Positions 3 through 18,495 of a stretch of DNA of 28,906 bases are shown here, piece by piece. The translations under genes and the position numbers were made by a program. A model generated the notes under the pieces. The model did no database searches, was not told where the DNA came from, and saw nothing but the letters and a program-made list of their open reading frames with translations. The stretch comes from Verrucomicrobiota bacterium. Its GTDB lineage: Bacteria > Verrucomicrobiota > Verrucomicrobiia > Verrucomicrobiales > DEV007. The stretch covers positions 1 to 28,906 of the forward strand of contig JASFYY010000097.1 of assembly GCA_045046875.1 (NCBI GenBank), given 5' to 3'. The first letter of the stretch is position 1, and the number at the start of each line of letters is the position of its first letter.

Positions 3-506
3 GGTTTTGGCGAACCTTCCCTGATCAAATTTCAAGAACGCTACCTTATAACCATCCGCAGCAACACCCGGGCCTACGTGACATCCGGCAGTGACGGCTT
101 GAACTATGAAACCCCCAAAGCCTGGACCTTCGATGACGGCAAAGAACTCGGCTCTTACAATACCCAGCAACACTGGATCGCCCACAGCGACGGCTTGTTT
201 CTACTCTACACCCGCCGTGGAGCCAACAACGATCACATCAATCGCCATCGTGCCCCTCTCTTCATCGCCCAGGTCGATCCTGCCAAACTCCAGGTGGTGC
301 GTGAAAGCGAACAAGTCCTCGTACCCGAACGTGGAGCCATGATGGGTAATTTTGGAGCCACCAACGTCACGGCAGCCGAATCCTGGGCCGTCGTTTGTGA
401 ACACTTCCGCAAAGACGAAGCCCGCCAACGCGGAGCGAAAGGTGCCTTGTTTGTTTCCCGAGTGATCTGGTCAAAACCCAATCGATTGGTCAAAACAAGT
501 AGGTGA
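3..506 (+). CDS. Sialidase/BNR-repeat (exo-alpha-sialidase-like) beta-propeller protein, 5'-truncated by the window edge
   Basis: The frame is open from base 3 (GFGEPSLIKFQERYLITIRS...). It has an EPS...R segment, an Asp-box-like SGSDGLNY and LGSYNTQQHW...LYTRRGANNDHINRHRAPLFIA, which I recognise from PVC 'sialidase family' proteins. Stop TGA is at 504-506. Confidence 0.7.
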   Translation, partial: GFGEPSLIKFQERYLITIRSNTRAYVTSGSDGLNYETPKAWTFDDGKELGSYNTQQHWIAHSDGLFLLYTRRGANNDHINRHRAPLFIAQVDPAKLQVVRESEQVLVPERGAMMGNFGATNVTAAESWAVVCEHFRKDEARQRGAKGALFVSRVIWSKPNRLVKTSR

Positions 507-520
507 CTTGCCTCTTCTTT

Positions 521-562
521 CCTAAAGCCTAAACCCCTACAACCTAAACACCTACAGCCTAC
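521..562. repeat. Degenerate 7/8-mer tandem repeat (CCTAMA-based)
   Basis: cctaaag cctaaacc cctacaa cctaaaca cctacag cctac, lying between two convergent genes. Confidence 0.75.
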
Positions 563-604
563 CCACCTTCCCCCCTTGACCGCCAAAGCCTCGGCGAAGG
601 AGGT

Positions 605-1693
605 TCACACCGTCTCCCCCCGTACGAATTCCGGCATCAGGCGAATCGCATGAGCTGGCAAAATCCCCGTCTCCGCCAGTTGCCGCGCGGCGGCGGAAAC
701 GCGTTTGGCATAACGCTCAGGATCATTGGAATAACGCGTGATCGCCGGTCGCAGGGCTTCCAGGAAAATGTCGTCATCACGGGATATGACCGCCACATCC
801 TGTGGAATACGTTTACCCTTATTCAAGAGATGAAAAACAAGCGTCAAGGTATGCAAAGCACGCGCCACCACAAATGCGGTGGGTGCATTCTTCTGCTTCA
901 GGGCAGCATCAACCAGTTTGCACAAATGCTCAGCACTGCCATCATGCCGCAGCACCTGCATGCTGGCATTTTTTGAACTTGCTACTAGTTCCTTTAAACC
1001 CATCTCGCTATCCGCGTCTCCACCAAAAACATCCTTGGGCAAGACCAGCGCGATCCGGCTATGCCCCTTGCGTAACAGCACCCCGCCCGCATGGTGACAC
1101 ACCGCCCGGTGATCAGCATCTATGGAAGGCAGCATGATGTTCGGCCTGGAGGATCCCATCACCAGACAAGGTGTTTTTTTGCGCACAAACCAACGTTCGG
1201 TGGTTTCCTTGGAATAAAGTAACATCCACACATTGCTGGCATTGCGGCTCACCAGTTTCTCCAGGGCACGTGAAGGTTTTGCCGAATAACAGGCTTTGTC
1301 ATGATGGATACGCATGGAAAATCCCGCTCGCGCCAAGGTCCTCCTCAGCACATCCAATAACAGCAAGATCGATGGGTTCAAGCCAGTTAGAGGTGCCGAA
1401 GAAATAACTCCGACCACCCTTTTTTTATCATCATCGTTCAAATCAGACTTTTTCTTTTTGATCCGTCTATTCTTGCCCTGGGTGACTTCCAGCAAACCTT
1501 CCCGCTGCAATTCCTTAAGCGCCGTGCGCAGCGTCGTGCGCCCGACTTGCAATTGCTCGCTCAAAACTCTCTCTCCAGGTAGAATCTCCCCCCATTGTCC
1601 CGCTTCAATTCCACTGCGCAAACTTTCCACCGTTTCGGCAATGAGCGAGCAACGTTGAGGCAATCCCGTATCTACTGAATTTTTCCCTTTCAC
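605..1693 (-). CDS. Transcriptional regulator with GntR winged-HTH and LacI/periplasmic-binding-type effector domain (AraR-like architecture)
   Basis: N-terminal LPGERVLSEQLQVGRTTLRTALKELQREGLL is a GntR HTH. C-terminal LPSIDADH...LLRKGHSRIA...IPQDVAVISRDD is a LacI-type sensor. The ORF track starts at 1729; a GTG at 1693 or TTG at 1663 is more plausible, so the start is uncertain. Confidence 0.9.
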   Translation of the reverse strand: MKGKNSVDTGLPQRCSLIAETVESLRSGIEAGQWGEILPGERVLSEQLQVGRTTLRTALKELQREGLLEVTQGKNRRIKKKKSDLNDDDKKRVVGVISSAPLTGLNPSILLLLDVLRRTLARAGFSMRIHHDKACYSAKPSRALEKLVSRNASNVWMLLYSKETTERWFVRKKTPCLVMGSSRPNIMLPSIDADHRAVCHHAGGVLLRKGHSRIALVLPKDVFGGDADSEMGLKELVASSKNASMQVLRHDGSAEHLCKLVDAALKQKNAPTAFVVARALHTLTLVFHLLNKGKRIPQDVAVISRDDDIFLEALRPAITRYSNDPERYAKRVSAAARQLAETGILPAHAIRLMPEFVRGETV

Positions 1694-1714
1694 TGGTTTT
1701 ATTATAAAACCAGT
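1692..1714. promoter_or_regulatory. Candidate operator for the adjacent GntR-type regulator
   Basis: Perfect inverted repeat ACTGGTTTTAT-T-ATAAAACCAGT (11+1+11) in the divergent promoter region, containing GntR-like TGGT...ACCA half-sites. Confidence 0.6.
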
Positions 1715-1761
1715 ATAGCCCGCTTGCAAAGCACGGATGCAAAAAGGATTATATTAACCCT

Positions 1762-2517
1762 ATGGCCCCCTACTCCGCAGAAAAACAAGCTTACGACAAA
1801 CATGGTTTCACCATTGTGCGTGGATTCCTCAATGATTCAGAATTAAACGAGCTGCAGGAAAACCTGAATCGTTACATCCGTGAAGTCGTTCCGACTTTGC
1901 CGGACTCAGATGCTTTTTACGAAAGTCGTGAGCAACCCGAGACGCTGAAACAGTTGCAGCACATGGGAGCCGATCCGTATTTCCTACTCTACGGCCAGCA
2001 TCCCAAATGGAAAACTCTGGCAGAGGCTCTGGTCGGCGAACCGATCAGCGACTCACAACCTGAATGGTTCAACAAACCGCCCGGCACGCGTCACGTCACT
2101 CCGCCACACCAGGATAACTATTATTTCTGTCTCAAACCATCCAATGTGGTCACCATCTGGTTGGCACTCGATACCGTCGATGCGGAAAACGGTTGCCTGC
2201 GCTACTTGTCAGGTTCACACCAACAGGGCTTTCGTCCTCATGCCAAGTCCAATACTCTGGGATTCTCGCAAGGCATCACCAGTTACACTTCGGATGATTT
2301 CAGCAATGAAATAGCAGCCCCCTTACAAGCAGGTGACGCAGTGGCCCACCATGGAATGACAATTCATCGCGCGGATGCCAACATGTCCACTACGCGTCAC
2401 CGCCGTGCCCTGGCGATGGTCTGTAAAGGGGTTTCCTGTGAGCGAGATGAAAAAGCTTTTGCTCGATATCAGCAAATGATGCAAAAACAACATCAGGAAG
2501 TTGGTATCAAAGTCTGA
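1762..2517 (+). CDS. Phytanoyl-CoA dioxygenase (PhyH) family Fe(II)/2-oxoglutarate dioxygenase
   Basis: YDKHGFTIVRGFL start, KPPG...TPPHQDN (HxD), TIWLALD...ENGCLRYLSGSH, distal His in HGMTIHRA and RRA. No signal peptide. Confidence 0.92.
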   Translation: MAPYSAEKQAYDKHGFTIVRGFLNDSELNELQENLNRYIREVVPTLPDSDAFYESREQPETLKQLQHMGADPYFLLYGQHPKWKTLAEALVGEPISDSQPEWFNKPPGTRHVTPPHQDNYYFCLKPSNVVTIWLALDTVDAENGCLRYLSGSHQQGFRPHAKSNTLGFSQGITSYTSDDFSNEIAAPLQAGDAVAHHGMTIHRADANMSTTRHRRALAMVCKGVSCERDEKAFARYQQMMQKQHQEVGIKV

Positions 2518-2575
2518 AAAACTGTAGCCTGATCCCTTTTCCCCTTACGAACAAATCCATCCAATCAAGCCCGAC

Positions 2576-3334
2576 ATGCAAAATACCCCCACCCTACCAC
2601 TCAGCGAGCTCTACAAACTCAAACGTTGGAACACTCCCACCATCTACAATGGTTGGGAACAAGTCACCCAACAAAACCCCGCGGCTGACGCCTTCAACAT
2701 TGAAGAAACCCACGACTTCATGCCGCAGATGGGTCCCATGGTGGGGTACGCGGTCACCCTGGTGATCGAACCCAGTAATGAGGAACACCGCCAAACCAAT
2801 CCAAATGCCGGCGCGGAGTATCGTGAATACATCGCCAGCATTCCAGGACCAAAAATCGTCGTCGTGCAGGATCTCGACAAACCCCGGGTATTGGGATCCC
2901 ACTGGGGAGAGGTCAACGCCAACCTGCATCGCGCTTTTGGTTGTGTCGGCACCATCACCGACGGCGCGATCCGCGACGTGGATGAGATGTGTAATGCCGG
3001 ATTCAAGGCACTCGCCCAACGTCTCTGTGTCGGCCATGCTTTTGTTCATCCGGTGCGCTGGGGTTGTGAAGTGGAAGTCTTCGGTCGCACAGTAAAACCC
3101 GGCGACCTCATTCACGCGGATCAACACGGTTTCATGACCATCGCTCCGGAAGACCAGGCAGGATTGCTCGACGCCTCACGTTTCATGGATGAAAACGAAT
3201 GCAAAACCGTGATCCCTGCGATTAGGGCCTCGGCGGATAAAAGTGCCGCTGATTTGTTAAATCATGTTGAACAGTCCATCGACCAGTTCCGAAACAACGT
3301 GCAGACAAAATTCAACAACACTGGTGAATGGTAA
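2576..3334 (+). CDS. RraA family / HMG-CHA-type class II pyruvate aldolase-like protein
   Basis: NTPTIYNG, MVGYAVT, WGEVNA, GTITDGAIRDVDE (conserved RD) and VKPGDLIHADQHG. Confidence 0.88.
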   Translation: MQNTPTLPLSELYKLKRWNTPTIYNGWEQVTQQNPAADAFNIEETHDFMPQMGPMVGYAVTLVIEPSNEEHRQTNPNAGAEYREYIASIPGPKIVVVQDLDKPRVLGSHWGEVNANLHRAFGCVGTITDGAIRDVDEMCNAGFKALAQRLCVGHAFVHPVRWGCEVEVFGRTVKPGDLIHADQHGFMTIAPEDQAGLLDASRFMDENECKTVIPAIRASADKSAADLLNHVEQSIDQFRNNVQTKFNNTGEW

Positions 3335-3370
3335 AAACATTTCTCTCTCCGTGTTAACCTACCTGTTTTT

Positions 3371-4618
3371 GTGAACCCCCTCATCATCATTCTATCGATC
3401 ACCGTGACCTGCTTCAGTGTGTCCGTAGCACGCGATCTACACGTCGATCCATCTCAAGGCAATGATTCTAACGATGGTTCCTCGCAATCTCTGAAAACCA
3501 TCAAGCGCGCTATCCGGATTGCGCAGCCCGGTGATACCATCCACCTCAAACCTGTTATCTATTACGAATACGCGGGATTCCACAACAAACGAGGGGAAGC
3601 GGGAAAGCCTATCACCCTCGCCGGTCATGGCGCCACTCTCGAAGGCTCTGATGCGATCGATCCCTCCACCTGGCAAGAAGTGAGCCCGGGGTTATTCAAA
3701 AACGGGCAACTCATGCCTACACTCAATCGCGCTATTTTATGGCGATGGTTTTTCCTCTTCAACGGGAAAATCAATCGCATGGGTCGGGTCATGAAAGGCA
3801 AAAGCGATGAATTTAAAAAACCAGAAAGCTTACAGGAAGGCGAATGGACTTTTGTGGCGGCAGGCGAACCCAGTTCCGCAAGTGGCGATTCACAAAAAGC
3901 ACCTGGCACTTTTTATCTCAAAATCAAATCCGGCCAAAACCTGGCGGAAGCCAGGATCAGATACCCGGTGAGACCCGCAGGCGTTATTTTTAGCGGTGAC
4001 AATGCCCACCTCGTCATTCGCAATCTCACCGCAAGCCACCCCTACAACGACGGTTTCAATATCCACGGAGATTGTCGCGATGTGGTCTTTGAGAATATCC
4101 GCGCCATCGAATGTGGCGATGACGGCATCAGTGCTCACGAAAGCGCACAGTATCGGGTCAACGGTCTGGTTTCCATCGGCAACGGCACCGGCATCTGCGA
4201 CACCGGCAGTAGCCAAACCTCTTATAAAAATCTGTTCATCGCCGACTGCGTGGGTGTGGATCTCTATTTTCTCGATACCGGACGTTACTCGATCGACAAT
4301 GGCATCGTGCTGTCTTCCGCGCAAAAGCCGCTGATCGTGACCGGAGGATCCAAGGGTTCTTGTGAATTAAAAATCAACAATCTTTTCATCAGACGAATAG
4401 GCACACCTCAAGCTGCCGTCATTGCTATCAATTCCAGTCTATTCGCCAACAAACTCACTCTGGACAATCTCGATCTCAAAATCACCGGTAAAGCAGAATT
4501 CGAAAACTGCCTGATCAACGGGCACCCTAATCCAAAGGATGCAAAAGCACCGGGAGCTGATCTAAAAACTCTTGTGAAAACCCTCGTTCCAAAAAAATAT
4601 CAAACTCAATTACCCTAA
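3371..4618 (+). CDS. Exported right-handed parallel beta-helix protein (polysaccharide lyase/hydrolase-like)
   Basis: GTG start and hydrophobic signal peptide. LHVDPSQGNDSNDGS..LKTIKRAIRIAQPGDTIHL is the typical beta-helix N-terminal cap, followed by NDGFNIHG, DDGISAHE and NGTGICD coils. Confidence 0.8.
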   Translation: MNPLIIILSITVTCFSVSVARDLHVDPSQGNDSNDGSSQSLKTIKRAIRIAQPGDTIHLKPVIYYEYAGFHNKRGEAGKPITLAGHGATLEGSDAIDPSTWQEVSPGLFKNGQLMPTLNRAILWRWFFLFNGKINRMGRVMKGKSDEFKKPESLQEGEWTFVAAGEPSSASGDSQKAPGTFYLKIKSGQNLAEARIRYPVRPAGVIFSGDNAHLVIRNLTASHPYNDGFNIHGDCRDVVFENIRAIECGDDGISAHESAQYRVNGLVSIGNGTGICDTGSSQTSYKNLFIADCVGVDLYFLDTGRYSIDNGIVLSSAQKPLIVTGGSKGSCELKINNLFIRRIGTPQAAVIAINSSLFANKLTLDNLDLKITGKAEFENCLINGHPNPKDAKAPGADLKTLVKTLVPKKYQTQLP

Positions 4619-4620
4619 CA

Positions 4621-6267
4621 ATGAAAACCCTACTTAACTCGTGGCAAGCGGAGCGCTCGCCCTACAATCCCAAACGACACGCACAACTCCATTGTAGGGA
4701 GGCCACCCCGGCTGCCTTCCTAATACTAACTGCCATATTATTACTCCTCCCTCACACTCAAGCCGAAGAACAAACCTTTTTCGCATTCGATGACCACAGC
4801 ATCCCATGGCAACACAACTTAAAAACCACTCTGGTCCAGGCCGATAAACATCCTGACAACCCTGTGCTGCTGCGTGGACCGAAAGGCGCCCCCGATAACG
4901 CCCACGCCATTCTCTACGGCACAGTCATCAGGGATAAGGACAAATTCCGCATGTGGTATCTCGGCAATTTTGATACAAAACAACTGAAAACACCAGCTCC
5001 AAAAAACTGGCGCCCCATGTGTTATGCCGAGAGCAAGGATGGCATTCACTGGAGCAAACCAAATTTAGGTTTAGTGGAATTTAATGGCAATACCAACAAC
5101 AATATCTGCCTCATCCAGGGCAATCCACAATCACTGACACTCGTCAATGATTTCCTCTCGGTATTGCATGACCCCAGTGATCCCGATCCATCGAAGCTCT
5201 TCAAGGTTGCTTACATCGCCCATGTGCCCTACGAGGAAATCGCCGGTGGCATGAGCAGCATAGGCAGGAAAGAAAAAAACATCTGCTCCACGATCTGCGC
5301 AACCAGCGCTGACGGCTTGACTTGGAAAGTTGTCGGCGACCGCCCGGCAAATGCAGGTGGCGAGCGTTTTGAAGTCAGTGGTCTCTATCGCTTTGGTGAC
5401 TTTTATTATTCCACCGGACAAATTATCGGCCCTTGGTCGTGGCAGACCGACGGGTCATTCCGCAAAGATCCTAAACGCCCTGACCCCGACCGCGTGATGC
5501 GGGTGTATCGCTCTGCAGATTTCAGCTCGTGGTCACAAGCCACTGCGCTGAGCTTTGCCCGTCCCGGACAGCTTGCGAGCCCATCCGTCAGAGGTCAACA
5601 GACGCACATGGGGGCAGGCATGTGGAATCGCGGCAAGGTCATGCTTGGGCTCTACGGGCAATGGCAGGACGCCGCCGAGCCACCTGCCAAAGGCCATGGT
5701 TTTAATGAAGGGGTTCACATAGACCTTGGCCTCATTGTGAGCAATGACGGCATTCATTTCCGCGAACCGGTGGCGAACCACAAAGTCATCGCCGTAGGAA
5801 AAAAAGGCGAATGGGATGACGTAGCTTTGCTCCAGGGGCATGCCTTTGTCAATGACGGTGATAAAACGATGATCTGGTATTCTCACTGGGATACCAGCGG
5901 CCAAGGCAAACCTATGGAAATCGGTCTGGCAACTTTGCGCCGGGATGGTTTTGGATATTTATCCGCCCAGGAGGATGACAACGAAGCCGAGTTCATTACC
6001 GACTTCTTTGAAGCGGATGAAAAAACCAGGATCTCTCTGAATGTAGATGGATTGTCACCCGATGCTCCTCTCGAAATCGAACTGCTCGACCACCTTGCCA
6101 AACCCCTACCAGGATTCTCTGGTGCCGATGCGGTGAAGATCACCGACAACGGCACGCGCCAAGCCATCACCTGGGCAAAAAAAATACCCAGTGGAAAACT
6201 TGCGCTTAGAGTAAAATACCCCAGCGGCAGCAAAGCCAAAGTATATGCAATCTATCTAAATGAGTAA
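4621..6267 (+). CDS. Exported Asp-box beta-propeller protein, putative glycoside hydrolase
   Basis: Four Asp-box-like motifs (SKDGIHW, SADGLTW, SADFSSW, SNDGIHF), NPVL, FRMWY and IGLATLRRDGF before a C-terminal beta-sandwich. The signal peptide is unusually long and ends TQA. Confidence 0.7.
   Translation: MKTLLNSWQAERSPYNPKRHAQLHCREATPAAFLILTAILLLLPHTQAEEQTFFAFDDHSIPWQHNLKTTLVQADKHPDNPVLLRGPKGAPDNAHAILYGTVIRDKDKFRMWYLGNFDTKQLKTPAPKNWRPMCYAESKDGIHWSKPNLGLVEFNGNTNNNICLIQGNPQSLTLVNDFLSVLHDPSDPDPSKLFKVAYIAHVPYEEIAGGMSSIGRKEKNICSTICATSADGLTWKVVGDRPANAGGERFEVSGLYRFGDFYYSTGQIIGPWSWQTDGSFRKDPKRPDPDRVMRVYRSADFSSWSQATALSFARPGQLASPSVRGQQTHMGAGMWNRGKVMLGLYGQWQDAAEPPAKGHGFNEGVHIDLGLIVSNDGIHFREPVANHKVIAVGKKGEWDDVALLQGHAFVNDGDKTMIWYSHWDTSGQGKPMEIGLATLRRDGFGYLSAQEDDNEAEFITDFFEADEKTRISLNVDGLSPDAPLEIELLDHLAKPLPGFSGADAVKITDNGTRQAITWAKKIPSGKLALRVKYPSGSKAKVYAIYLNE
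4643..4717. repeat. GTAG-type REP doublet inside the 5' end of a CDS
   Basis: The reverse complement of 4643-4667 (ttgtagggcgagcgctccgcttgcc) matches 6271-6295 at 24/25 positions. A degenerate second copy, ttgtagggaggccaccccggctgcct, lies at 4692-4717. Confidence 0.8.
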
Positions 6268-6270
6268 TAT

Positions 6271-6333
6271 TTGTAGGCCGAGCGCTCCGCTTGCCTTCAC
6301 TGAATCTCGACAGGTGAAGCGCCTGCCCTACAA
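6271..6333. repeat. GTAG-type REP doublet (REPIN-like)
   Basis: ttGTAGgccgagcgctccgcttgcct ... gacaggtgaagcgcctgccCTACaa: two inverted GTAG-plus-hairpin units just after a stop codon. Confidence 0.85.
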
Positions 6334-6383
6334 CCCTCACCACCCTGTCCACAAGCAAACCCTCACCCCATAATTTGGAAGCC

Positions 6384-7262
6384 ATGCCTATTTTGATCAT
6401 CACCCGGTATTTTTGCATAGCCCACATGTTTGTCTTATTGCTCTCAGGCATGTCTGTGCTTCAGGCTGCTGAAGCGTCCATGACACTATGGCCGCAAGGA
6501 GCCCCTGGCGCACTTGGCATGGCTCAGAAGGACATACCTACACTCACAGCTTATATCCCGGATCAACCCACCGGATCAGCCATGTTACTCATTCCAGGAG
6601 GTAGCTACAGCGGCATTTTTGAAGGACAGGCAAAACCCTTTGCGATTTGGCTTAATAAACAAGGTATCACGACTTTCGTTTTGCGCTATCGGCTCGGAAG
6701 CGCGGGATACCGTTATCCAAGCCAACTGCAGGATGCCGTGGAAGCCATGCGTCACATAAGAGGTAATTATGAAAAATGGCAAATTGATACCAAGCGGATA
6801 GGAGTGATGGGGTTTTCTGCGGGTGGTCATTTGGTATCGTCACTGCTCACCAATCCGAAAGACGGTGATATTGAATCTGAAGATGAGCGCAGTAAAATCA
6901 GCTCTCGACCGGATTTAGCAATTCTCTGTTACCCGGTCATCAGCATGATTACCAAACCTCATAAAACTTCGCGCAAAAACCTTATCGGAGAATCGCCTAG
7001 TGACGATCTTGTTCGTAAAACTTCAAGTGAACTACAGGTGAAACCCGGCCTACCAGCCTGCTTCGTGTGGCATACAAACGAGGACAAAATGGTTCCACCC
7101 GATCACAGTCTGAATTTTGTCACCGCATTACGTGAGTTTAGTGTGCCATGTGAATTTCATCTCTACCAATCCGGGAATCACGGAACAGGACTGATTGGTA
7201 CGAAACATCCATGGCTGAACGACCTCCTGTTTTGGTTGCGGGGTCAGAAATTCATCAATTAA
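6384..7262 (+). CDS. Exported alpha/beta hydrolase (BD-FAE / acetyl esterase-like)
   Basis: PGGSY oxyanion loop, LRYRL, GFSAGGHL nucleophile elbow, RPDLAILCYPVI, Asp in EDKMV and His in GNHG. The start could be 6375, 6384 or 6426. Confidence 0.9.
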   Translation: MPILIITRYFCIAHMFVLLLSGMSVLQAAEASMTLWPQGAPGALGMAQKDIPTLTAYIPDQPTGSAMLLIPGGSYSGIFEGQAKPFAIWLNKQGITTFVLRYRLGSAGYRYPSQLQDAVEAMRHIRGNYEKWQIDTKRIGVMGFSAGGHLVSSLLTNPKDGDIESEDERSKISSRPDLAILCYPVISMITKPHKTSRKNLIGESPSDDLVRKTSSELQVKPGLPACFVWHTNEDKMVPPDHSLNFVTALREFSVPCEFHLYQSGNHGTGLIGTKHPWLNDLLFWLRGQKFIN

Positions 7263-7312
7263 GTTCACGCTATGCAAACAAATTTATCAAAACCCCATTA
7301 CCCACTTAGCAT

Positions 7313-9808: not shown

Positions 9809-9954
9809 CCACTGATCTTCACTGATGAGCACTGATGCACGACTTTACGATCAACCCTCTATCGACTTTCATGAGAGCACGTTTGCAGAATAATAGACTG
9901 AACAGTTGCCAGAAAATATTGCCCATCAGTGTCTATCAGTGCGCATCAGTGGTT
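9807..9954. repeat. Inverted-repeat element with 3 x CACTGAT at 10-bp period on each arm (MITE-like)
   Basis: Left arm aacCACTGATcttCACTGATgagCACTGATg (9807-9837). Right arm cATCAGTGtctATCAGTGcgcATCAGTGgtt (9924-9954). Confidence 0.85.
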
Positions 9955-9989
9955 CTAATTCTTCAATTTTATAAAATGTCACTACCCGC

Positions 9990-11711
9990 ATGAAATACCT
10001 CACTTCAATCCTAATAGCGATTTTCTCAGTCACACTTGCCGCAAGTGGTGAACCTTCATCAAAAAAAACGAGCAGTGAGGACCATATCACCGGACTCTGG
10101 TTGATGGGACAATCCTTGTGTGAGGGCGCACAATCCTTACCTATCGTCACCTCCGCCGATACCGGTCATGGCAACTTCTCTTTCAAACGCGGCGTGCGCA
10201 CCTGGCGCTATGGCGATCACGCCAAGCAACCGCAACAACGCGCCGACGATCAATTTGTTTTCACCCCGCTCACTGCCCATTTGTTTGGTGGTCTGGGAGA
10301 AACCATCGCCAACGGCCTGGCGGACCATCTCAGTTTTAGTTTAGCAAAATCAAAAAACGCCCCATCCAAGCAGCCTATCCGCGCCCCGTTTTTGGTCTCT
10401 TACGCCGGTCAGGGCGGGCGTATGATCGATGAACTTTCCCAAACCGATCAAAGCAGCGATGCCCGCACACCCAAATCGAGGCAGCACGGTGGAGGCTACT
10501 ACCGGACCAGTCTCGACGATGCCCGCCGCGCTCGTCAACAAGCTGAAACCATGGGTAAAACTTTTTCCATCGCCGCACTGGTCTGGATGCAGGGAGAAGC
10601 CAATGGCGGACCCACCGGAGGCATCAATCCCAGTCGCTGGGGTGAAGAATTACCACGTCCGGAAGGACTGCAATGGTACCGTGACCGCCTGATCGCTTAC
10701 CGTCAACAATGGTCGCACGACTTACAGGCGATCACCGGACAAAGTGGCGAGCTTCCCCTGTTCACCTACCAGACTCAGGGAGTAGCAGGTGAAGCCCAGC
10801 TCATGGCCGCCGACCAGGATCCGCACATCACCATGGTTGGGCCCCACTACATGGTGGCGAGCGGTCTCAACAGTCAATACGCAAAACGATATGGAGCTGC
10901 CATCCATCTGTCAGCCGACGGCGAACGCTGGTATGGAGAACAAGTCGCCAAAGTGATGCAGCGCGTTCTCACCGCAGGCGAAAAGTGGCAACCGCTGCGA
11001 CCGCTCAAGGCAAAAATCGCTGACGACCGCAATAGTGTATTGGTTGACTTCCACGTTCCTCGCCCGCCGTTGGTCTTGGATCATGACTTCCTCGCCCGAC
11101 AACATTATAAAACCGGCAAAGCTTTTTCATCTCTCAACGGATTGCAAATACGCAACTCGGCAAGAGCGGTTTCATTGATCAGCTCCATCGAAGTGGACTC
11201 CCCCACTGCACTCCGCATTCGTCTGACATCCCCCTTGAAAAAAGACAGCTCTTACCATCTCAGCTACGGCCAATCTTATGCCGGCCAAATTGGAAAGATA
11301 TCCAGCGTCCGTGAAGGGCCGAAACTTGGCGAACAAAAAACCACGGAGATTCTGATCAAAGGTGACCTGAGCCAACAACTGTCGGCCTTAAGCAAGGAAG
11401 GTGCCTTCAATGTTTCAAATACGAACACGGCAGGGCCATACACCCAAGCCAGCATCCGTCACCTCTATGTCGAAAACGGCTTCACTGTGCTGCGATTCGA
11501 AGACCGAGAACTGCGCAATCAAGTCAAGTTCAACTCCGGACAAATGCTCACCGCTCACCGGCCTTTTGCCTACGGTAATCTACGGGATTCTGATCCTGCG
11601 CAATCGATCTATCAATTCGCCGACCAATCCTACGGAAATCGCGCCGGACAAAACTACCCGCTGTGGAACTGGTGCGCGCTCTTCAAACAATTTCCCATTT
11701 CTGACCAATGA
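9990..11711 (+). CDS. Exported SGNH/SASA-type (sialate O-acetylesterase-like) esterase
   Basis: Signal peptide, block I MGQSL, block II AGQGG, block III VWMQGEAN, catalytic His in AIHLS, and a long C-terminal extension. Confidence 0.72.
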   Translation: MKYLTSILIAIFSVTLAASGEPSSKKTSSEDHITGLWLMGQSLCEGAQSLPIVTSADTGHGNFSFKRGVRTWRYGDHAKQPQQRADDQFVFTPLTAHLFGGLGETIANGLADHLSFSLAKSKNAPSKQPIRAPFLVSYAGQGGRMIDELSQTDQSSDARTPKSRQHGGGYYRTSLDDARRARQQAETMGKTFSIAALVWMQGEANGGPTGGINPSRWGEELPRPEGLQWYRDRLIAYRQQWSHDLQAITGQSGELPLFTYQTQGVAGEAQLMAADQDPHITMVGPHYMVASGLNSQYAKRYGAAIHLSADGERWYGEQVAKVMQRVLTAGEKWQPLRPLKAKIADDRNSVLVDFHVPRPPLVLDHDFLARQHYKTGKAFSSLNGLQIRNSARAVSLISSIEVDSPTALRIRLTSPLKKDSSYHLSYGQSYAGQIGKISSVREGPKLGEQKTTEILIKGDLSQQLSALSKEGAFNVSNTNTAGPYTQASIRHLYVENGFTVLRFEDRELRNQVKFNSGQMLTAHRPFAYGNLRDSDPAQSIYQFADQSYGNRAGQNYPLWNWCALFKQFPISDQ

Positions 11712-13378
11712 ACTTAAAAACAATCCACCCAAATCAGGGATTCACCCGGCGGGATTTTCTGCAAAGCAGCGTCGGCGCTGCTGCGGCAACATTGACAAGC
11801 ACTTCGATAGCCAGCAGCCAGGTCGCCGGTCATCGGGCAGCACTCAGCCAACGCAAATGCCGCATAGTCGTCCAACACGATGCGTATGATATTTTACAGG
11901 CTTGCCTGAGAAAATTCGGAGCCGAACAGGCTTCCTTCGATACCTTCAAACAAGCGGTGTTCTCCCACCTGGACGATCCAGCCAGTCAGATCGATGCCAT
12001 TTGGTGGGACATCAACGGGGCCTCTCCCGGATCGGCCTACCCCAGTGATATCCTTCCCCCTGTAGACAATCCCTTGTTAAAAACATGGTTGGCTGACGGT
12101 GTCGATTGGGTCAGGGAACTGGTGTCGGAAACACGCAAACGAAAGCTGGAAGTCTTCTGGAACTACCGCATCAGCGAAGTCGATGGCTTGGCCGGAGGCG
12201 GTTTAGCCAAGAAAAAAATAAATCCACTGAAAGCCGCTCATCCTGACTGGCTCGTCCCCGATACCTGGTGGTGGCAGGGCATGTGGAATCTGGCATCCGA
12301 AGATTTGCGGTTTCATAAAATCGAGGTGTTGCATGAGTTGGTCACGCGTTATGATTTTAATGGAATCCAAATCGACTTTTCCCGTCACATGCCCTGCCTA
12401 CCTATCGGCAGGCAATGGGAAATGCGCGAGCACGTCACTGAATTCATGCAAATGGTCAGGCAGTTGCTTGACGAGTCAGGAAAAAAACGCGGCCACCCTA
12501 TTTTGTTGGCCGCAAAGGTTCCGCGCAATCCAGCGGGTTGTCGCATCGATGGTTTTGATCTCCAGGCTTGGGCGGATAAAGGGCTGATAGACATTCTCAC
12601 TCTGGGATCACGATCGATCTATGTGGAAGTGGAAGGCTTTCGCAAGCTGGTCGGGGATAAAGTTCAACTGCAACCCTGCTTCGACGATCATCACGCCACC
12701 GACGGATACCGCCATCAATCCGTAGAGTTTCTTCGCGGCGTATTCGCCAACCACTGGCAACGCGGCGCGGACAGCGTGGTGACTTTTAACTGGTCCACAG
12801 GCGTTCCCGAGGTAGCTCAAAAAGTCGGTGCGGAAATCGGGCCGCTGTCGCAACAGGTCGCATACCGGGAAATTGGCGATCCTTCTTCCATGGTCGACAA
12901 GGACAAAATATTCGCGGTCGAACGACGTGGTGGCTATCCCTGGTCGAACGGATTTTTTAATCGCAATCACACTTCGCCTTTGCCGGTGATTCTTTCGCAA
13001 GACAAGGCAAAGGTCACTTTAGCTTTGCACATCAGCGATGACCCAATGGCAAGCAAAGCAAAGCTCACCCTTCGTTGCATTTTATTCGGGGTAAATGTGG
13101 ACGACTCGTTCGAATTCCGAATCAACAACACTCCGCTCACGGCAGGTGTGCGGGATACTGAATGGAAAGATGCCCAGATCTTTTCCCCCAAGCGCCAGCC
13201 CACATCAGGAGGCAAAGGGCTTTATAAAATCAATCCAAAACAACAACTGCTACGACTCGATTGCCTCGTGCCCAACAAGGCCTGGCGACAAGGTCTCAAT
13301 CAGATTTCCATCCATCTGACTTCGACAAATAAAACTTCCGTTCAAATCGAAAAATTAGAAGCTCACCTCAAATACTAA
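11708..13378 (+). CDS. Tat-exported TIM-barrel glycosyl hydrolase-like protein (GHL10/DUF187-like)
   Basis: FTRRDFL twin-arginine signal, HPDWL...WNLASEDLR...ELVTRYDFNGIQIDFSR and GFDLQAWADKGLID. It overlaps the upstream gene by ATGA. Confidence 0.75.
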   Translation: MNLKTIHPNQGFTRRDFLQSSVGAAAATLTSTSIASSQVAGHRAALSQRKCRIVVQHDAYDILQACLRKFGAEQASFDTFKQAVFSHLDDPASQIDAIWWDINGASPGSAYPSDILPPVDNPLLKTWLADGVDWVRELVSETRKRKLEVFWNYRISEVDGLAGGGLAKKKINPLKAAHPDWLVPDTWWWQGMWNLASEDLRFHKIEVLHELVTRYDFNGIQIDFSRHMPCLPIGRQWEMREHVTEFMQMVRQLLDESGKKRGHPILLAAKVPRNPAGCRIDGFDLQAWADKGLIDILTLGSRSIYVEVEGFRKLVGDKVQLQPCFDDHHATDGYRHQSVEFLRGVFANHWQRGADSVVTFNWSTGVPEVAQKVGAEIGPLSQQVAYREIGDPSSMVDKDKIFAVERRGGYPWSNGFFNRNHTSPLPVILSQDKAKVTLALHISDDPMASKAKLTLRCILFGVNVDDSFEFRINNTPLTAGVRDTEWKDAQIFSPKRQPTSGGKGLYKINPKQQLLRLDCLVPNKAWRQGLNQISIHLTSTNKTSVQIEKLEAHLKY

Positions 13379-13385
13379 TACCCCC

Positions 13386-15731
13386 ATGTCTATTTCCCTC
13401 ATCACCCAACTCACTGAAGCTGACCATAAAATGATTCGCCAGGCTTGCGATGATTTTGTGCCTGACAAGATCTTCGATATTCACACCCACTTGTTTCACT
13501 CGAAAAATTTCGCCGCAGGCAAACGCCCGGAATTCCTCGCAGAGGACACTGGTTATGGAATGACAGATTTTCGCGAAGCTCTTGGTCGCTGGTTGCCCAA
13601 TCGGGAAGTCGAGGGGCTCTTTTTCGGCTACCCCTCACCGGACAATGATCGGGTAGGCGAAAATCACTGGGTCGCCTCGCAGCTCGAACAACACCCCGAG
13701 CAGAGCTTGAGCCGCAAGCTCGCTCTGGTCTCTCCTGAAGACGGTGAAGAGGCCACTCGAAAACTGATCCAGGAACGTGGATTCAACGGTATCAAACCCT
13801 ACCGGCTTTACGCGCCAGTGGACGATACCAATCAAGCCCGTATCGAAGAATTCGCTCCACCCTGGATGTGGCAGATTTGCCATGACATTAAGGGCGTGAT
13901 GGTGCTTCACATCATGCGCAGCGAAGGCATCGCCGATCCGGATAATCTGGAAAGCATCGAACGGCTCTGCAAGGAGTTCCCCGACTGCCGTCTGGTGCTT
14001 GCCCATATTGCGCGCTCGTTCAACTACCGCAATGCGCGGACGGCGCTGCGAAAAATCGAACCGCTCGACAATGTGGTCGTCGACACTTCGGCAGTGACCG
14101 AAGTCGAAGCCATGCGGGTGGCCCTCGATTCCCTCGGTCCGCAACGCGTGCTGTTCGGCAGTGATTACATGGTCAGTGAATTGCGCGGAAAATGTTTCAC
14201 CATGGGTGACGGATTTTCCTGGATCTACACCGATAATCTACCCTCACCTGCAGTCACGGCTTTTGAAAATTCGGCACTGGTCGGCGTGGAATCGTTGCTC
14301 TGCCTGCGTGAGGCTTTTGACATTGGCGGTTTCAACTCGGCGGACGCCCAGGACGTTTTCCACGACAATGCCTTGCGGCTACTGTCTCCCCATCTGGATG
14401 ACGTCGATATTCCAAAAAACCCGAGCGGACCGGAACTCGCCTCCATCGCCCAGCAGAGTATTTCCTGCGGCACTGGCCTGCTATCCAAGCGTCCGGAAAG
14501 CTTTGATCCGGCGACCTGGCCTGCTTATTTTTCCCGCGCGTCGGGTTCTTACATCTGGGACATGAGCGGACGCAAGTTGATGGATTTCACCGGCGGAGCG
14601 GGAGCCATCCTGCTCGGCCACAGTGATCCCGACGTCAATGCCGCCGTGCGTCGCCGACTCAGTCTGGGAACCTATTCCATCCTCGCCTCACCGGATGAAG
14701 TGACCCTCGCCGAGACCTTGCTCGATCTGCACCCCTGGGCTGACAAAGTGCGTTATGCCCGTGGAGGTGGTGAAGCCCTGAGCATCGCCGCTCGCATTGC
14801 TCGCGCCGCCACCGGACGCAGCAAAATTGTGTTCTGTGGATACCATGGTTGGAGCGATTGGTATCTGTCCGCCAACCTAACTGGAACCGAAGCTCTCGAA
14901 GGTCACCTCCTACCCGGTCTGGAACCGCATGGTGTGCCATCCGAACTCGCTGGAACGGCGATCCCATTTAAATACAACGATTACCAGGCTTTCGAAAAAG
15001 CTTTCGCCGCTGCCGATGATCAACCTGCCGCGATCATCATGGAACCGATGCGCGCGGAATTACCGCGTGATGGTTTTATGGAAAAGATTGCCGCCCGTTG
15101 TCGAGCTGCAGGAACTGCCTTCATCATTGATGAAGTCACCGCTGGTTGGCGTTTTGGATTCCCCGGTGGCTGCGCCAAAATCGGCATCGAACCGGACATT
15201 GCCGTGTACGCAAAAGCCATGTCGAACGGCATCCCCTGTGCCGCCATCGTCGGACGTGGAGAAATCATGGATGCCGCCAATGACAGTTTCATTTCCTCGA
15301 GCTACTGGACCGACGGCATCGGTCCCGCGGCTGCCCTGGCCTGCATCGATAAAATGCAGCGCATGGGAACCCAAAACCATGTCTGGTCATTGGGAGAAAA
15401 ACTACAGGAAAAATTACGCCAACTCGCCGAGCAACATCCGTCGCTCAAACTCAAAGTAGGCAGTCAAGCCTGCGCACCTTCACTCGCCTTCCAACTCGGT
15501 GAAGACAGCCTCGCCACCAAAACCCTGATGATCCGTGAAATGTTAAAACGAGGTTTCCTGTTTTCAAGCCAACTCTACGTTTTGGGCACGCATGACGAAA
15601 ACCAGATCAACAGCATGTTAAACGCCCTCGATGAAAGCCTCAGCGAATTGGATGAACTGCAAACCGAAGGCAAACTGCAAGAGCAAGTAGGCGACAAAAA
15701 AGCCAGTGCTGGTTTTGGGAGATTAGCATGA
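13386..15731 (+). CDS. Fusion of a metal-dependent amidohydrolase (Amidohydro_2-like) and a class-III PLP aminotransferase (GSA-aminomutase-like)
   Basis: N-half: DIHTH, GIKPY, LHIM, LAHIAR, VDTSAV, LFGSDY. C-half: GSYIWDMSGRKLMDF, LLGH, GGGEA, GYHGW, IMEP, IDEV, YAKAMSNG (PLP lysine). No signal peptide. Confidence 0.9.
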   Translation: MSISLITQLTEADHKMIRQACDDFVPDKIFDIHTHLFHSKNFAAGKRPEFLAEDTGYGMTDFREALGRWLPNREVEGLFFGYPSPDNDRVGENHWVASQLEQHPEQSLSRKLALVSPEDGEEATRKLIQERGFNGIKPYRLYAPVDDTNQARIEEFAPPWMWQICHDIKGVMVLHIMRSEGIADPDNLESIERLCKEFPDCRLVLAHIARSFNYRNARTALRKIEPLDNVVVDTSAVTEVEAMRVALDSLGPQRVLFGSDYMVSELRGKCFTMGDGFSWIYTDNLPSPAVTAFENSALVGVESLLCLREAFDIGGFNSADAQDVFHDNALRLLSPHLDDVDIPKNPSGPELASIAQQSISCGTGLLSKRPESFDPATWPAYFSRASGSYIWDMSGRKLMDFTGGAGAILLGHSDPDVNAAVRRRLSLGTYSILASPDEVTLAETLLDLHPWADKVRYARGGGEALSIAARIARAATGRSKIVFCGYHGWSDWYLSANLTGTEALEGHLLPGLEPHGVPSELAGTAIPFKYNDYQAFEKAFAAADDQPAAIIMEPMRAELPRDGFMEKIAARCRAAGTAFIIDEVTAGWRFGFPGGCAKIGIEPDIAVYAKAMSNGIPCAAIVGRGEIMDAANDSFISSSYWTDGIGPAAALACIDKMQRMGTQNHVWSLGEKLQEKLRQLAEQHPSLKLKVGSQACAPSLAFQLGEDSLATKTLMIREMLKRGFLFSSQLYVLGTHDENQINSMLNALDESLSELDELQTEGKLQEQVGDKKASAGFGRLA

Positions 15732-15746
15732 AAGCAAGCTCAACCA

Positions 15747-15804
15747 TTGTAGGGCAACCGCTCCGGCTACCTCGATACTTGGCAGGCAGGAGTTTGCCCG
15801 CGAA
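15747..15804. repeat. Degenerate GTAG-type REP doublet
   Basis: ttGTAGggcaaccgctccggctacct (15747-15772) followed by a decayed inverted partner, ggcaggcaggagtttgcccgcgaa (15781-15804). Confidence 0.65.
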
Positions 15805-15857
15805 ACATATTAGTCACCTAATCCCCTCTTCCTAACAAGCTAAATACCCACTACCCC

Positions 15858-16781
15858 ATGAACACCGAACCCACTGTCTTTCTCAACGATCGTTTCATCC
15901 CCGCCTCAGAGGCAGGCATCAGCATTTACGATCTAGGCATCGTGCTCGGTGCCACGCTTACCGAAATGACCCGCACCTTTGCCGGCAAAGCCTTCCGTCT
16001 CGAAGACCATGTCGATCGCCTTTACCGCTCACTGCACTACTCCGGCATCCAAGTGGATCTCACACCGGGTGATATGATTTCCAAAACGCTGGAGCTAATC
16101 GCCACCAACAGCGACCAACTCAAAGAGGGCGAGGACCTGGGCGTCGTGCATTTTGTCACCCCTGGGGAAAACCCCATCTACGCAGGCAGCGCCGCGGGAA
16201 AGGTAAGACTCAAACCCACGGTCTGTATTCACTCCTTTCCGCTTCCTTTTTCCGCTTGGAGTCATCTCATCACCGACGGCGCCCATGTGGTGACGCCATC
16301 CATCCGCCACATCCCGCCCCAATGCCTTGATCCCAAAATGAAAAACCGCTCTCGCTTGCACTGGTTTATCGCCGAGCAGCAAAGCCAGAACGTAGATCCT
16401 AAAGCTATCAGCCTACTACTCGATCTCGATGGGAATATCACCGAGTGCGCGGGATCCAATTTCCTCATCGCTCGCGATCACACCATCTACAGTCCGACTT
16501 CGCGCAATATTCTAGGCGGCGTCAGCATGGCAACTGTACGCGAACTGGCCGATGAACTGGGTTGGGCCTGGGTCGAAAAAGATTTGCAGGTTTACGACGT
16601 CGCCAACGCCGATGAAGCCTGGCTCACCACAACGCCCTACTGCGCGGCGCCCTGTAGCAAAATTAACAATATTCCGATCGGATCAGGCGAACCCGGCCCT
16701 ATGTATAAGGAGCTGATGGATGCCTGGAGTCAACGGGTAGGCGTGAATATCGTCGCTCAAATTACGAATTCCCATGATTAA
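15858..16781 (+). CDS. Class-IV (fold type IV) PLP aminotransferase, BCAT/DAAT/ADC-lyase superfamily
   Basis: VFLNDRFIP...ISIYDLG, FRLEDHVDRLYRS, catalytic Lys in DPKMKNRS, GNITECAGSNF, ILGGVS and ADEAWLT. Confidence 0.9.
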   Translation: MNTEPTVFLNDRFIPASEAGISIYDLGIVLGATLTEMTRTFAGKAFRLEDHVDRLYRSLHYSGIQVDLTPGDMISKTLELIATNSDQLKEGEDLGVVHFVTPGENPIYAGSAAGKVRLKPTVCIHSFPLPFSAWSHLITDGAHVVTPSIRHIPPQCLDPKMKNRSRLHWFIAEQQSQNVDPKAISLLLDLDGNITECAGSNFLIARDHTIYSPTSRNILGGVSMATVRELADELGWAWVEKDLQVYDVANADEAWLTTTPYCAAPCSKINNIPIGSGEPGPMYKELMDAWSQRVGVNIVAQITNSHD

Positions 16782-16992: not shown

Positions 16993-18495
16993 TCAAGCCA
17001 TCACGTCCTTGATCACATGGCCATGCACCACGGTCAGGCGGCGTTCGAGTCCATTGTGATAGTAGGTCAGACGTTCGTGATCAAAACCCATCAACCGTAA
17101 AATCGTTGCGTTAAAATCGTATAAAGTCAGCGGATTCTCAGCCACCTTGAAGCCAAATTCGTCGCTCGCTCCGTAACTGGTTCCGGCGTTAACTCCCGCG
17201 CCCATGAACCATGCCGTGAACGCTCCCGGATTATGATCCCTGCCGGTTCCATTTTCCTGCAAAAAAGGCATGCGTCCAAATTCGGTACACCAAACCACCA
17301 GGGTATCATCCAGCATGCCTCGCTGTTTCATATCCTGCAGCAGGGCCGCAGTCGGTTGATCCATGATCTCCGCTTGCATGCCATGAGTCTTCTCCAAATC
17401 GTTATGCGAATCCCAGTTGGTGATTCCGTTGCCTCCACTGGCATCCGAACCGTTGAACAACTGCACCACCCGCACTCCTTGCTCCAACAGACGCCTCGCC
17501 AAAATGCAATTCCTCGCGTATGCCTTTTTGGTATCACTGCCACTGTCGGTGCCATACTGACGATGAATGAAAGCAGGCTCCTGATCAATACGGGTGACCT
17601 CCGGAATCGACAGTTGCATCTTGCCCGCCAACTCGTAACTCGCGATGCGGGCGGCCAAATCAGCATCCCCTGGGTATTGGTTCAGATGTTTGTCGTTCAA
17701 ACGTGCCAACAAATCCACCGCTCGTTTTTTGCCCGCCGGTGATTGTGATGCACTGCTTTTGAGATTGGCGGGTGGATTGGTCGCATTAAAATCAGTCCCT
17801 TGAAAAGCTGCCGGCAAAAATCCCGATCCCCAGTCATTTTTACCCGAACGCGGTTTCCCGCGTGGATCTTCAATCGCCACAAACGCAGGCAAAGATTCGT
17901 TCTCACTGCCAAGCGCATAGGTCATCCAAGATCCCAATGATGGAAAACCCTCAAAAGTGGAACCCGTGTTGATCAAATTCTCCGCTTGTGGATGTGCACT
18001 GGTCTGGGTGGTCAGCGAGTGCACAAAACACATGTCATCCGCCATCTCAGCAAGGTTCGGCAACAGGTCGGAAATCATTTTACCCGACTGACCCCGCGGA
18101 CGAAATTTCCACGGTGACTGCGCCACGCTACCGGTCGGTCCGGAAAAAGTAACCGCAGGCAAACCTGGCGGCTTTTTGCCATGAAAACGCGCCAGATCCG
18201 GTTTGTAATCAAAGGTATCAATGTGACTGACCGCACCCGGACAAGAAATAATCAGTAGCTTTTTTGCCTTTACCGGAAACATCGGCTTTCGTGCCGCGTA
18301 AGGATCACTGGAATTAATTTGAGGGCGAAACGGGCCTTTTGCCTTGGATGAATTTGCTAACAAGGAGTCAGCGCCGAGCAGTTGTAACAGTGAAAAACCT
18401 CCCATCAAACCTGCGGTCTGACCAAGAAAATTGCGCCGGTCAAGCAGGCTTCGCCCCATGGCAGATAAATGTGTCGCGTTGCGATTGTGATGCAT
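16993..18495 (-). CDS. DUF1501 domain protein (Tat-exported, PVC type)
   Basis: DRRNFL Tat motif, GAVSHIDTFDYKP, WDSH, TEFGRMP, GRDHNP and RRLTVVHGHVI. Confidence 0.93.
   Translation of the reverse strand: MHHNRNATHLSAMGRSLLDRRNFLGQTAGLMGGFSLLQLLGADSLLANSSKAKGPFRPQINSSDPYAARKPMFPVKAKKLLIISCPGAVSHIDTFDYKPDLARFHGKKPPGLPAVTFSGPTGSVAQSPWKFRPRGQSGKMISDLLPNLAEMADDMCFVHSLTTQTSAHPQAENLINTGSTFEGFPSLGSWMTYALGSENESLPAFVAIEDPRGKPRSGKNDWGSGFLPAAFQGTDFNATNPPANLKSSASQSPAGKKRAVDLLARLNDKHLNQYPGDADLAARIASYELAGKMQLSIPEVTRIDQEPAFIHRQYGTDSGSDTKKAYARNCILARRLLEQGVRVVQLFNGSDASGGNGITNWDSHNDLEKTHGMQAEIMDQPTAALLQDMKQRGMLDDTLVVWCTEFGRMPFLQENGTGRDHNPGAFTAWFMGAGVNAGTSYGASDEFGFKVAENPLTLYDFNATILRLMGFDHERLTYYHNGLERRLTVVHGHVIKDVMA

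Follow-up and report, generated by a model that had tools for sequence, protein, structure and literature searches.

The canonical Nan/Nag route of sialic acid catabolism (NanH, NanT/SiaT, NanM, NanS, NanA, NanK, NanE, NagA and NagB) first releases and de-O-acylates the sugar, then imports it and, after mutarotation, ends in an aldol cleavage that yields pyruvate. For bacterial nonulosonic acids such as pseudaminic (Pse) and legionaminic acid (Leg), no catabolic route was found in the open-access literature. Here, we describe a locus of a Verrucomicrobiota bacterium of the order Verrucomicrobiales that occupies positions 3–16781 of contig JASFYY010000097.1 (assembly GCA_045046875.1). The whole contig of 28,906 nucleotides was analysed and is referred to as the window; it is contig C97 of a 5.6 Mb genome. 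The locus works like a sialic acid utilisation locus but is not a nan cluster, and neither of its two hydrolases of interest has all defining features of glycoside hydrolase families GH156 or GH33. While it shares the general logic of the Nan/Nag route, the window lacks nanA, nanK, nanE, nagA and nagB and instead carries two transaminases, a PhyH and an RraA protein, several deacylases and non-canonical hydrolases; Nan/Nag-like genes (SSS, NanM-like, NagA and DHDPS-family) do occur in relatives of the cluster.

Other described systems share individual parts with this locus. EnvSia156, an inverting GH156 exosialidase (PDB 6RZD/6S00; PMC6811678), resembles the protein encoded at 11708–13378, termed the barrel, in its whole-length fold, base Asp, Arg-Arg-Asn triad and Trp164; the barrel differs by an identity of only ∼20%, by a His in place of Phe203 and by its Tat signal. 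The GH33 sialidases NanA, Neu2 and Micromonospora viridifaciens NedA share a propeller fold, three Arg, an Asp and a Glu with the family of the gene fragment at 3–506. As for the cytoplasmic enzymes, unfused relatives of the class III aminotransferase domain encoded here (AT-III) lie in the cassette of aldo-keto reductase (AKR), SpsF and class III aminotransferase known from the Pse operons of Aeromonas group I islands, in the same pseB-pseC-AKR-SpsF-AT-pseG-pseI order (PMC7874193), whereas the AT-III of the window is fused to an amidohydrolase and lies amid hydrolases with no synthase or cytidylyltransferase nearby. Finally, C8-epimerisation by EpaAB (PMC12053666) also involves a short-chain dehydrogenase/reductase (SDR), and PtmA-like SDR partners occur in the catabolic clusters of relatives. 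From gene content, folds, catalytic residues, co-location and neighbourhoods we infer substrate, direction and every reaction of the system: it is quite probable that the substrate is an ulosonic acid of some kind, and we slightly favour the reading that the two joined gene modules make Pse/Leg-type nonulosonic acids of bacteria, extra-amino forms included, available to the cell as nutrients.

Two gene modules are joined in one locus

The window merges two gene sets, modules A and B, that recur separately in related Verrucomicrobiales (Table 1). All twelve reading frames of the original prediction are present, with the regulator divergent from ten co-oriented, closely spaced plus-strand genes, just as it had described; gaps between these genes (1762–16781) measure −4 to 181 bp. 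Its division into six products with export signals and four without likewise agrees with a heuristic in which five products carry a hydrophobic N-terminal stretch (mean hydropathy 2.6–3.4, predicted export), the barrel a Tat-like motif, and the four predicted cytoplasmic products N-termini of 0.2–1.7. As also anticipated, no nan or nag gene, kinase or transporter lies within 3–16781; scans of the window proteins with curated models and Pfam found no nanA, nanK or nanE. Pfam matches above cut-off were obtained for PhyH, RraA-like, BD-FAE, M14 plus BD-FAE, Amidohydro_2 plus Aminotran_3 and Aminotran_4, matches below cut-off for the beta-helix protein and the barrel (GHL10), and none for the propeller, the SASA-like protein and the 3–506 fragment. 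Named homologues come chiefly from Verrucomicrobiota, and cultured members carry the fusion, as shown by a protein named for Roseimicrobium gellanilyticum.

Table 1. Genes of the locus, with positions in the window, strand, module and the basis of each assignment.
Predicted product	Position	Strand	Module	Basis
Exported sialidase-fold protein, 3′ end	3–506	+	B	Orthologue model vs GH33; conservation in 150 relatives
GntR-HTH/LacI-sensor regulator	605–1729	−	A	Pfam; divergent from RraA in relatives
PhyH-family Fe/2-oxoglutarate dioxygenase	1762–2517	+	A	Pfam; H116-x-D118...H202
RraA/HMG-CHA-fold enzyme for 2-keto acid	2576–3334	+	A	Pfam; DGAIRD motif, Arg133-Asp134
Exported right-handed beta-helix protein	3371–4618	+	A	Weak Pfam matches
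Exported putative beta-propeller glycosidase, unnamed family	4621–6267	+	A	Atlas neighbours
Exported BD-FAE-type alpha/beta esterase	6375–7262	+	B (loosely)	Pfam; 38–41% relatives in barrel/AT-IV loci
Exported M14-type deacylase fused to BD-FAE esterase	7313–9808	+	A	Pfam
Exported SGNH esterase, SASA-like	9990–11711	+	A	GQS/QGE motifs; Atlas TM
Tat-exported GH156-like ulosonidase candidate (barrel)	11708–13378	+	B	EnvSia156 sequence and structure match
Cytoplasmic amidohydrolase-class III aminotransferase fusion (AT-III)	13386–15731	+	A	Pfam; catalytic residues; relatives' neighbourhoods
Cytoplasmic fold-IV pyridoxal phosphate enzyme (AT-IV), distinct subfamily	15858–16781	+	B	Pfam; proximity to barrel

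When 251 genomes of the order were surveyed, 72 proved to encode the amidohydrolase domain, 69 of them as part of a fusion, judged by a reading-frame length of 760 aa or more; homologues of RraA, PhyH, close AT-IV and the barrel were present in 90, 45, 31 and 21 genomes, respectively. No more than 25 kb from the fusion, on one and the same contig, lay RraA in 24/72, PhyH in 14/72 and AT-IV in 2/72 genomes, counts that are lower bounds due to fragmented assemblies and that include kin which are not independent. Of the 15 genomes that have a close barrel, on the other hand, 12 encode AT-IV at most 10.1 kb away from it, with no AT-IV match in the six genomes with weaker barrel matches. Orthologues of the 3–506 gene (50–64% identity) were present in 8 of 19 fetched AT-IV loci, which also hold SSS and MFS carriers, an AstE/AspA deacylase and esterases. 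Relatives of the alpha/beta esterase are encoded in five barrel/AT-IV loci; the loci of G001 and G002 lack the gene. Relative G005 keeps the gene order, but AT-IV is not found at the corresponding place; its DNA is 86–91% identical over the cluster and 96% downstream. AT-IV thus keeps company with the barrel and the sialidase-fold gene, and the closest relative has none in its locus, which speaks against the earlier proposal that both transaminases jointly remove two amines; a single conserved pair of transaminases was rejected on the 2/72 count.

Mapping of ten loci from two families, picked for an RraA or PhyH gene close to the fusion, revealed regulator, RraA, PhyH, beta-helix, M14, propeller, SASA-like and fusion genes in shuffled order, accompanied by BNR_2, GDSL, HpcH, SDR, AKR, Gfo, SSS and NanM-type Kelch genes. 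The grouping is not due to chance, as it recurs in two families of the order, and, in line with the co-occurrence check put forward earlier, sialidase-fold and esterase genes do accompany RraA, PhyH and the fusion in relatives. Across 58 fusion loci, the partner families were the propeller (27/58), beta-helix (14/58), M14 (13/58) and SASA-like protein (11/58). Among 48 fused loci of at least 12 kb, a BNR-type gene occurred in 13, the propeller family in 26, an aldolase in 17 and SSS in 12, compared with 4.4%, 2.1%, 2.1% and 1.8% of 1,305 random windows of the own genome, an enrichment that is overstated in that the seeds were taken from fusion loci and the ten selected loci are longer. In unselected loci of at least 12 kb drawn from the phylum and from metagenomes (n = 17), aldolase, SSS, propeller and BNR genes numbered 5, 4, 4 and 1; in other order-level loci of that length (n = 16), there were nine with a propeller, two with BNR, one with SSS and none with an aldolase. 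Related loci further add NanM-type Kelch proteins (5/58), BNR_2, NagA, SSS carriers and HpcH/DHDPS aldolases, the DHDPS count of 4/58 taking in up to two unconfirmed loci (the seed L134:15648-16562 has no Pfam match at 1e-6). One neighbour family is NHL rather than BNR.

Several of these loci have further genes of their own. In L263 and L269, an alanine dehydrogenase that would recycle pyruvate as amine acceptor lies two genes downstream of the fusion. The fusion is also found in SusC/SusD-type loci with propellers, BNR_2, SSS and PhyH (L166, L167), and module A of three related loci includes an additional enolase and APH-type kinase (L241:919-3155). The PhyH gene of G002 (L013:1439-2190) is split across two frames.

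The separate occurrence of the modules raises the question of whether they share a substrate at all. They could adjoin only in this genus, with module B acting on an ulosonide and module A on a non-ulosonic amino sugar acid or aminocyclitol via deacylation, transamination, PhyH oxidation and RraA cleavage. Consistent with this, the other family has the modules widely separated or on separate contigs, gene content varies inside the genus, and D-serine-dehydratase-like, AAC(3)-like and enolase-superfamily genes are found among those of the fusion loci; the PhyH relatives SnoK, SnoN and EvdO2 act on antibiotic sugars. Yet, module A of relatives carries BNR_2, NanM-type Kelch proteins, SASA-like esterases and PtmA-like SDRs, and a distant barrel relative (E ∼4e-7 to 9e-7) sits inside three module A loci, so that separate substrates appear unlikely.

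Two predicted hydrolases with sialidase-like folds

By sequence, EnvSia156 is the sole significant PDB match of the barrel (E 6.8e-19, and 4.8e-27 with a 66-row profile). The barrel model (pLDDT 90) superimposes on EnvSia156 with a Z of 32.8 and a root-mean-square deviation of 2.8 over 442 aligned residues (model 14–520 on chain 6–502; TM 0.72–0.74 by query), the next fold following at Z 24, and thus represents a homologous (beta/alpha)8 barrel with a C-terminal beta-sandwich. Accordingly, the GHL10-like identity given in the original prediction, for which the Pfam match stays below cut-off, was replaced by GH156-like. Residues D58, R154, R226, N361 and W188 correspond to EnvSia156 D14, R129, R202, N346 and W164, whose catalytic roles have been described (PMC6811678). 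The carboxylate triad R154, R226 and N361 is kept in 65, 66 and 65 of 66 aligned rows, and the base position D58, placed from the start of the structural match on the assumption of a gap-free first strand, is Asp in 63/66 rows with three gaps. Sequence and model thus make the barrel a relative of the GH156 exosialidases and a putative ulosonidase that fails one defining residue, the general acid. A published GH156 profile allowed polar substitutions at this position, and this branch may already be part of the sequence lists of the GH156 preprint.

The sialidase-family gene claimed at the edge of the locus is represented here by its 3′ end; its 5′ part ends contig C110, where it follows an HpcH aldolase, and the same order of HpcH and sialidase-fold gene is found in G005. 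A PDB sequence search with the fragment returned nothing. The model of an orthologue adopts a sialidase propeller fold with Z 30–32 to GH33 structures at 9–13% identity. Conservation was counted in the best 150 relatives of a family with 945 representatives at E up to 0.001: the Arg triad is found in 98/123, 141/141 and 138/139 rows with GH33-like spacing, Asp in 118/127 and Glu in 138/141, the roles being assigned by spacing against what we take to be the GH33 numbering. Hence, the sialidase assignment holds at the level of the modelled fold and does not extend to the nucleophile. The G005 orthologue (L011:4707-5415) is split across two frames.

The amidohydrolase–aminotransferase fusion points to nonulosonate loci

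The fusion retains its presumptive catalytic residues in 27/27 rows (H33, H35, H175, H207 and D260 in the amidohydrolase; D582 and K610 in AT-III). The amidohydrolase domain yielded one weak, uncharacterised match in a PDB sequence search, while the best matches of AT-III include C-6′ aminotransferases, which act on terminal carbons. A haem-pathway HemL identity was rejected, with 183, 191 and 207 bits against cut-offs of 527, 398 and 486 (TIGR00713/PRK00062/PRK06209); a separate HemL-like paralogue is encoded on C37.

It is the unfused relatives that suggest a substrate class. A metagenome scan with the fusion alignment covered the best 80 of 587 confirmed stretches, and among the matches listed, 37/61 unfused AT-III relatives (43–50% identity) lie with PseB/G/I, SpsF, NeuA or NeuC, nine in catabolic-looking loci, and 15 are not placeable; where the locus reaches 5 kb, as it does in 37 cases, 25 are placed by Pse/Leg/Neu markers. 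Within three genes of AT-III, the 37 biosynthetic loci encode an AKR, Gfo or SDR protein in 25 cases and a cytidylyltransferase in 27, and PseI/NeuB is present in 25/37. Both AT-III matches among 72,556 plasmids are in annotated nonulosonate loci. A biosynthetic cassette of this kind is that of Pseudosulfitobacter pseudonitzschiae SMR1, with the AKR WP_089422654.1 and the AT-III WP_089422657.1. Markers of Pse/Leg/Neu biosynthesis (synthase, cytidylyltransferase), by comparison, were found in 0/58 fused loci, on which grounds a biosynthetic role of the window was rejected, and no PseI/NeuB relative was found in the own genome with the seed used, which favours the catabolic direction. In the tree, the clade of the window's fusion has a support of 1.0.

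What the cassette would add to the sugar can be gleaned from published work. EpaAB, a cytidylyltransferase–AKR plus SDR pair, epimerises C8 of Pse (PMC12053666), and by analogy, swapping the SDR of the AKR/cytidylyltransferase cassette for an aminotransferase would give an 8-amino sugar. An 8-amino nonulosonate is known from the marine O-antigen of Flexibacter maritimus (PMC3210612); the excerpts of the T. maritimum O-antigen paper do not tie AT-III to the 8-amino sugar. The island of Aeromonas AH-1 (subgroup IA; PMC7874193) adds only an AKR and a class III aminotransferase, and this strain carries a Pse-like glycan of the odd mass 403, which would fit a di-hydroxybutyryl 8-amino residue, computed at 403.195. 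By analogy, the fusion likely reverses this extra amination, probably at C8. The relatives point to an additional side-chain amine rather than to the 5- and 7-amines.

A terminal amine is not unique to Pse and Leg, however, and the locus could serve another ulosonic acid, namely 8-amino-Kdo (Kdo8N) of marine lipopolysaccharide (LPS), amino-neuraminic acid, or Kdo/Dha-type acids of plant and algal glycans, with AT-III removing the terminal amine and aldolases releasing pyruvate. GH156 tolerates different C5 groups and binds Kdn (PMC6811678). The C-6′ aminotransferases among the PDB matches and the NeuA/NeuC genes of some biosynthetic loci are in line with such a substrate, as is Kdo8N itself, reported as common in Shewanella LPS. 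What makes this alternative rather unlikely is that the unfused relatives listed lie mostly with Pse markers, that Kdo8N is made by a DegT-type enzyme, which belongs to another family than AT-III, and that the number of deacylases would fit di- or tri-acylated sugars better.

A further alternative is ordinary sialic acids. If aminotransferases replaced the NagB-type deamination, the locus could provide an alternative route for Neu5Ac, Neu5Gc, Kdn and their O-acetyl forms, and the characterised relatives of the barrel are indeed reported to act on Neu5Ac, which is also the substrate of characterised SASA and NanM relatives. Yet, both hydrolases deviate at catalytic positions, AT-III is linked to Pse-type loci, and the own genome has NagA relatives elsewhere as well as a separate locus on C126 with BNR_2, SSS and DHDPS-family genes, all of which renders this reading very unlikely. 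The C126 operon (L275:5657-11963) comprises a GntR/FCD regulator, an FG-GAP plus BNR_2 protein, an SSS carrier and a DHDPS-family enzyme.

Partner oxidoreductases and remaining enzymes

Two SDR groups of the related catabolic clusters join the biosynthetic PtmA-like SDRs with a support of 0.998, and one of 13 SDRs of the own genome falls in the same clade. It is encoded on C18, which also carries an amidohydrolase, a hydroxyacyl-CoA-dehydrogenase-like protein and a Gfo oxidoreductase, at 43–70% identity to genes of locus L186; a DHDPS-family enzyme on C49 is 69% identical to its L186 counterpart, and on C55 a BNR_2 protein and a propeller accompany a second regulator. The metagenomic L186 (2024-11097) itself combines an unfused AT-III with HpcH, SDR, Gfo, hydroxyacyl-CoA-dehydrogenase-like, amidohydrolase, DHDPS, SSS and PhyH genes and offers a compact model system.

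The RraA protein keeps the catalytic Arg and metal-binding Asp (R133-D134) and resembles HMG/CHA aldolase (PMC5065237) and the keto-deoxy-glucarate dehydratase/decarboxylase FlDet (PMC8563752) in fold, Arg-Asp pair and the use of 2-keto acids, but is only weakly similar to 3NOJ (E 0.007) and scores 26–32 bits against LigK-family models, far below their cut-offs. The protein could fill the retro-aldol role predicted earlier but may, by analogy, be a dehydratase/decarboxylase rather than an aldolase; HpcH-type (C110, C113) and DHDPS-type (C49) aldolases are available in the genome. In six loci, mostly of Pirellulaceae (L037, L041, L047, L050, L066, L069), RraA subfamily genes come after a conserved set of genes for a 2-hydroxyacid dehydrogenase, a lactate permease, a class V aminotransferase and glycolate-oxidase-type proteins, which hints at a glyoxylate/pyruvate aldol step there.

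As for the remaining products, PhyH keeps its iron triad, and its family includes KanJ, which carries out the oxidative deamination of an amino sugar. The beta-helix protein has no significant PDB relative. For the propeller, an Asp-box assignment is at most tentative, with no Pfam match and unnamed nearest Atlas clusters; the nearest named clusters carry BNR_2. The SASA-like protein reaches TM 0.60–0.64 to SASA-named ESM Atlas clusters without matching Pfam SASA (PF03629), and AT-IV passes no curated model. The true start of the regulator is probably near 1675, as distant homologues align from residue 13–23, and a sigma70-like site was found at 1729–1701 in a promoter/terminator scan that was overall at chance level.

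A proposed pathway and how it weighs up

The proposed route begins in the periplasm, where the ulosonate would be set free by the GH156-like barrel and the sialidase-fold protein. Linkages close by would be cleaved by the beta-helix protein and the propeller, and the SASA-like, BD-FAE and M14 domains would take off O- and N-acyl groups. After import by SSS/MFS carriers, which are encoded inside the locus in relatives and elsewhere in the own genome, the amidohydrolase would free the side-chain amine, which the fused AT-III would convert to a ketone by reversing the biosynthetic amination, C8 being the most likely site. This ketone could be reduced by a PtmA-like SDR, Gfo oxidoreductase or AKR (candidates are encoded on C18), followed by C3–C4 retro-aldol cleavage to pyruvate by an HpcH, DHDPS-type or RraA enzyme, and AT-IV and PhyH would remove or oxidise the remaining amine or methyl group. 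The substrate class originally proposed, acylated amino-ulosonic acids, is thus partly supported by the GH156-like barrel and the link of AT-III and SDRs to nonulosonate loci, whereas the chemistry laid out at the time does not hold in detail and its exact order of steps is improbable.

A number of observations weigh against feeding on Pse/Leg-type acids. First, the hydrolases: the general acid H134 of EnvSia156 corresponds to D159 in the barrel and is Asp or Glu in 66/66 rows, the position of the nucleophile Tyr expected by spacing is Asn in 131/133 rows of the 3–506 family, and neither protein can therefore be called a canonical sialidase. In addition, one verrucomicrobial GH156 is reported as inactive on 4MU-Neu5Ac. 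Second, BNR_2 is rare in loci not chosen for linkage (1/17 and 2/16 vs 4.4% of control windows), 17/58 fused loci have none of the scored partners, and modules A and B may serve different sugars. Third, the two PtmA-like SDR groups match best to PRK09186 with scores below cut-off, and neither a third SDR group nor the AKRs of the closest clusters belong to the biosynthetic clades. The RraA subfamily, examined in 80 loci from several phyla, lies with 2-hydroxyacid dehydrogenase (10), glycolate-oxidase-type (8) and HpcH genes (7) and is therefore not specific to this system, and FlDet, which has the RraA fold, dehydrates and decarboxylates a keto-deoxy sugar acid (PMC8563752). Lastly, the root of the AT-III tree has a support of 0.21, too low to tell which form arose from which; amination by the biosynthetic cassette is in turn only proposed by analogy, the authors describing the 403-Da glycan ranked a nitrogen-free formula first, and an acetamidino form also gives an odd mass.

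Surroundings of the locus

Judged by eye, the gaps at 6268–6374, 9809–9989 and 15732–15857 contain palindromic or repeated elements, two of which are alike and resemble the REP (repetitive extragenic palindromic) type. Downstream, a DUF1501 gene and a PSCyt1/DUF1549/DUF1553 gene with an F5/8 domain (16993–21404) form a pair common in the Planctomycetes–Verrucomicrobia–Chlamydiae (PVC) group, with no functional link to the cluster as far as tested with Pfam. The region 21502–28451, which is 96–99.6% identical in G005, encodes a CBM9-DUF5916 protein, a glycerol-3-phosphate-dehydrogenase-like flavoprotein, the permease and ATPase of a polar amino acid ABC transporter, a LysM protein and a 302-aa reading frame. 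In the reading frame 28531–28863, a 13-residue unit is present ∼3 times at about 28650–28820, so that the DNA close to the end of the contig probably contains a short tandem repeat.

Implications for the turnover of bacterial glycans

Bacterial nonulosonic acids are common on capsules, LPS and flagella, and the locus described here names a candidate enzyme for each step of their use. More tentatively, and with rather less than even confidence, it may represent the first catabolic pathway for tri-amino (8-amino) and other side-chain-modified Pse/Leg acids, which would proceed via reversed biosynthetic amination and epimerisation enzymes, receive its sugars from two new families of ulosonidases (a branch of GH156 in which Asp/Glu is the acid, and a sialidase fold with Asn for Tyr), and be used by widespread PVC bacteria and Bacteroidota to recycle bacterial surface glycans. 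The locus also makes the widespread AKR/SpsF/AT-III cassette of Pse operons accessible through a soluble protein, and glycan analysis would profit from hydrolases that are specific for linkages of the Pse/Leg type. Given that 72 of the 251 genomes surveyed encode the amidohydrolase domain, the pathway could play a part in how bacterial polysaccharides are turned over.

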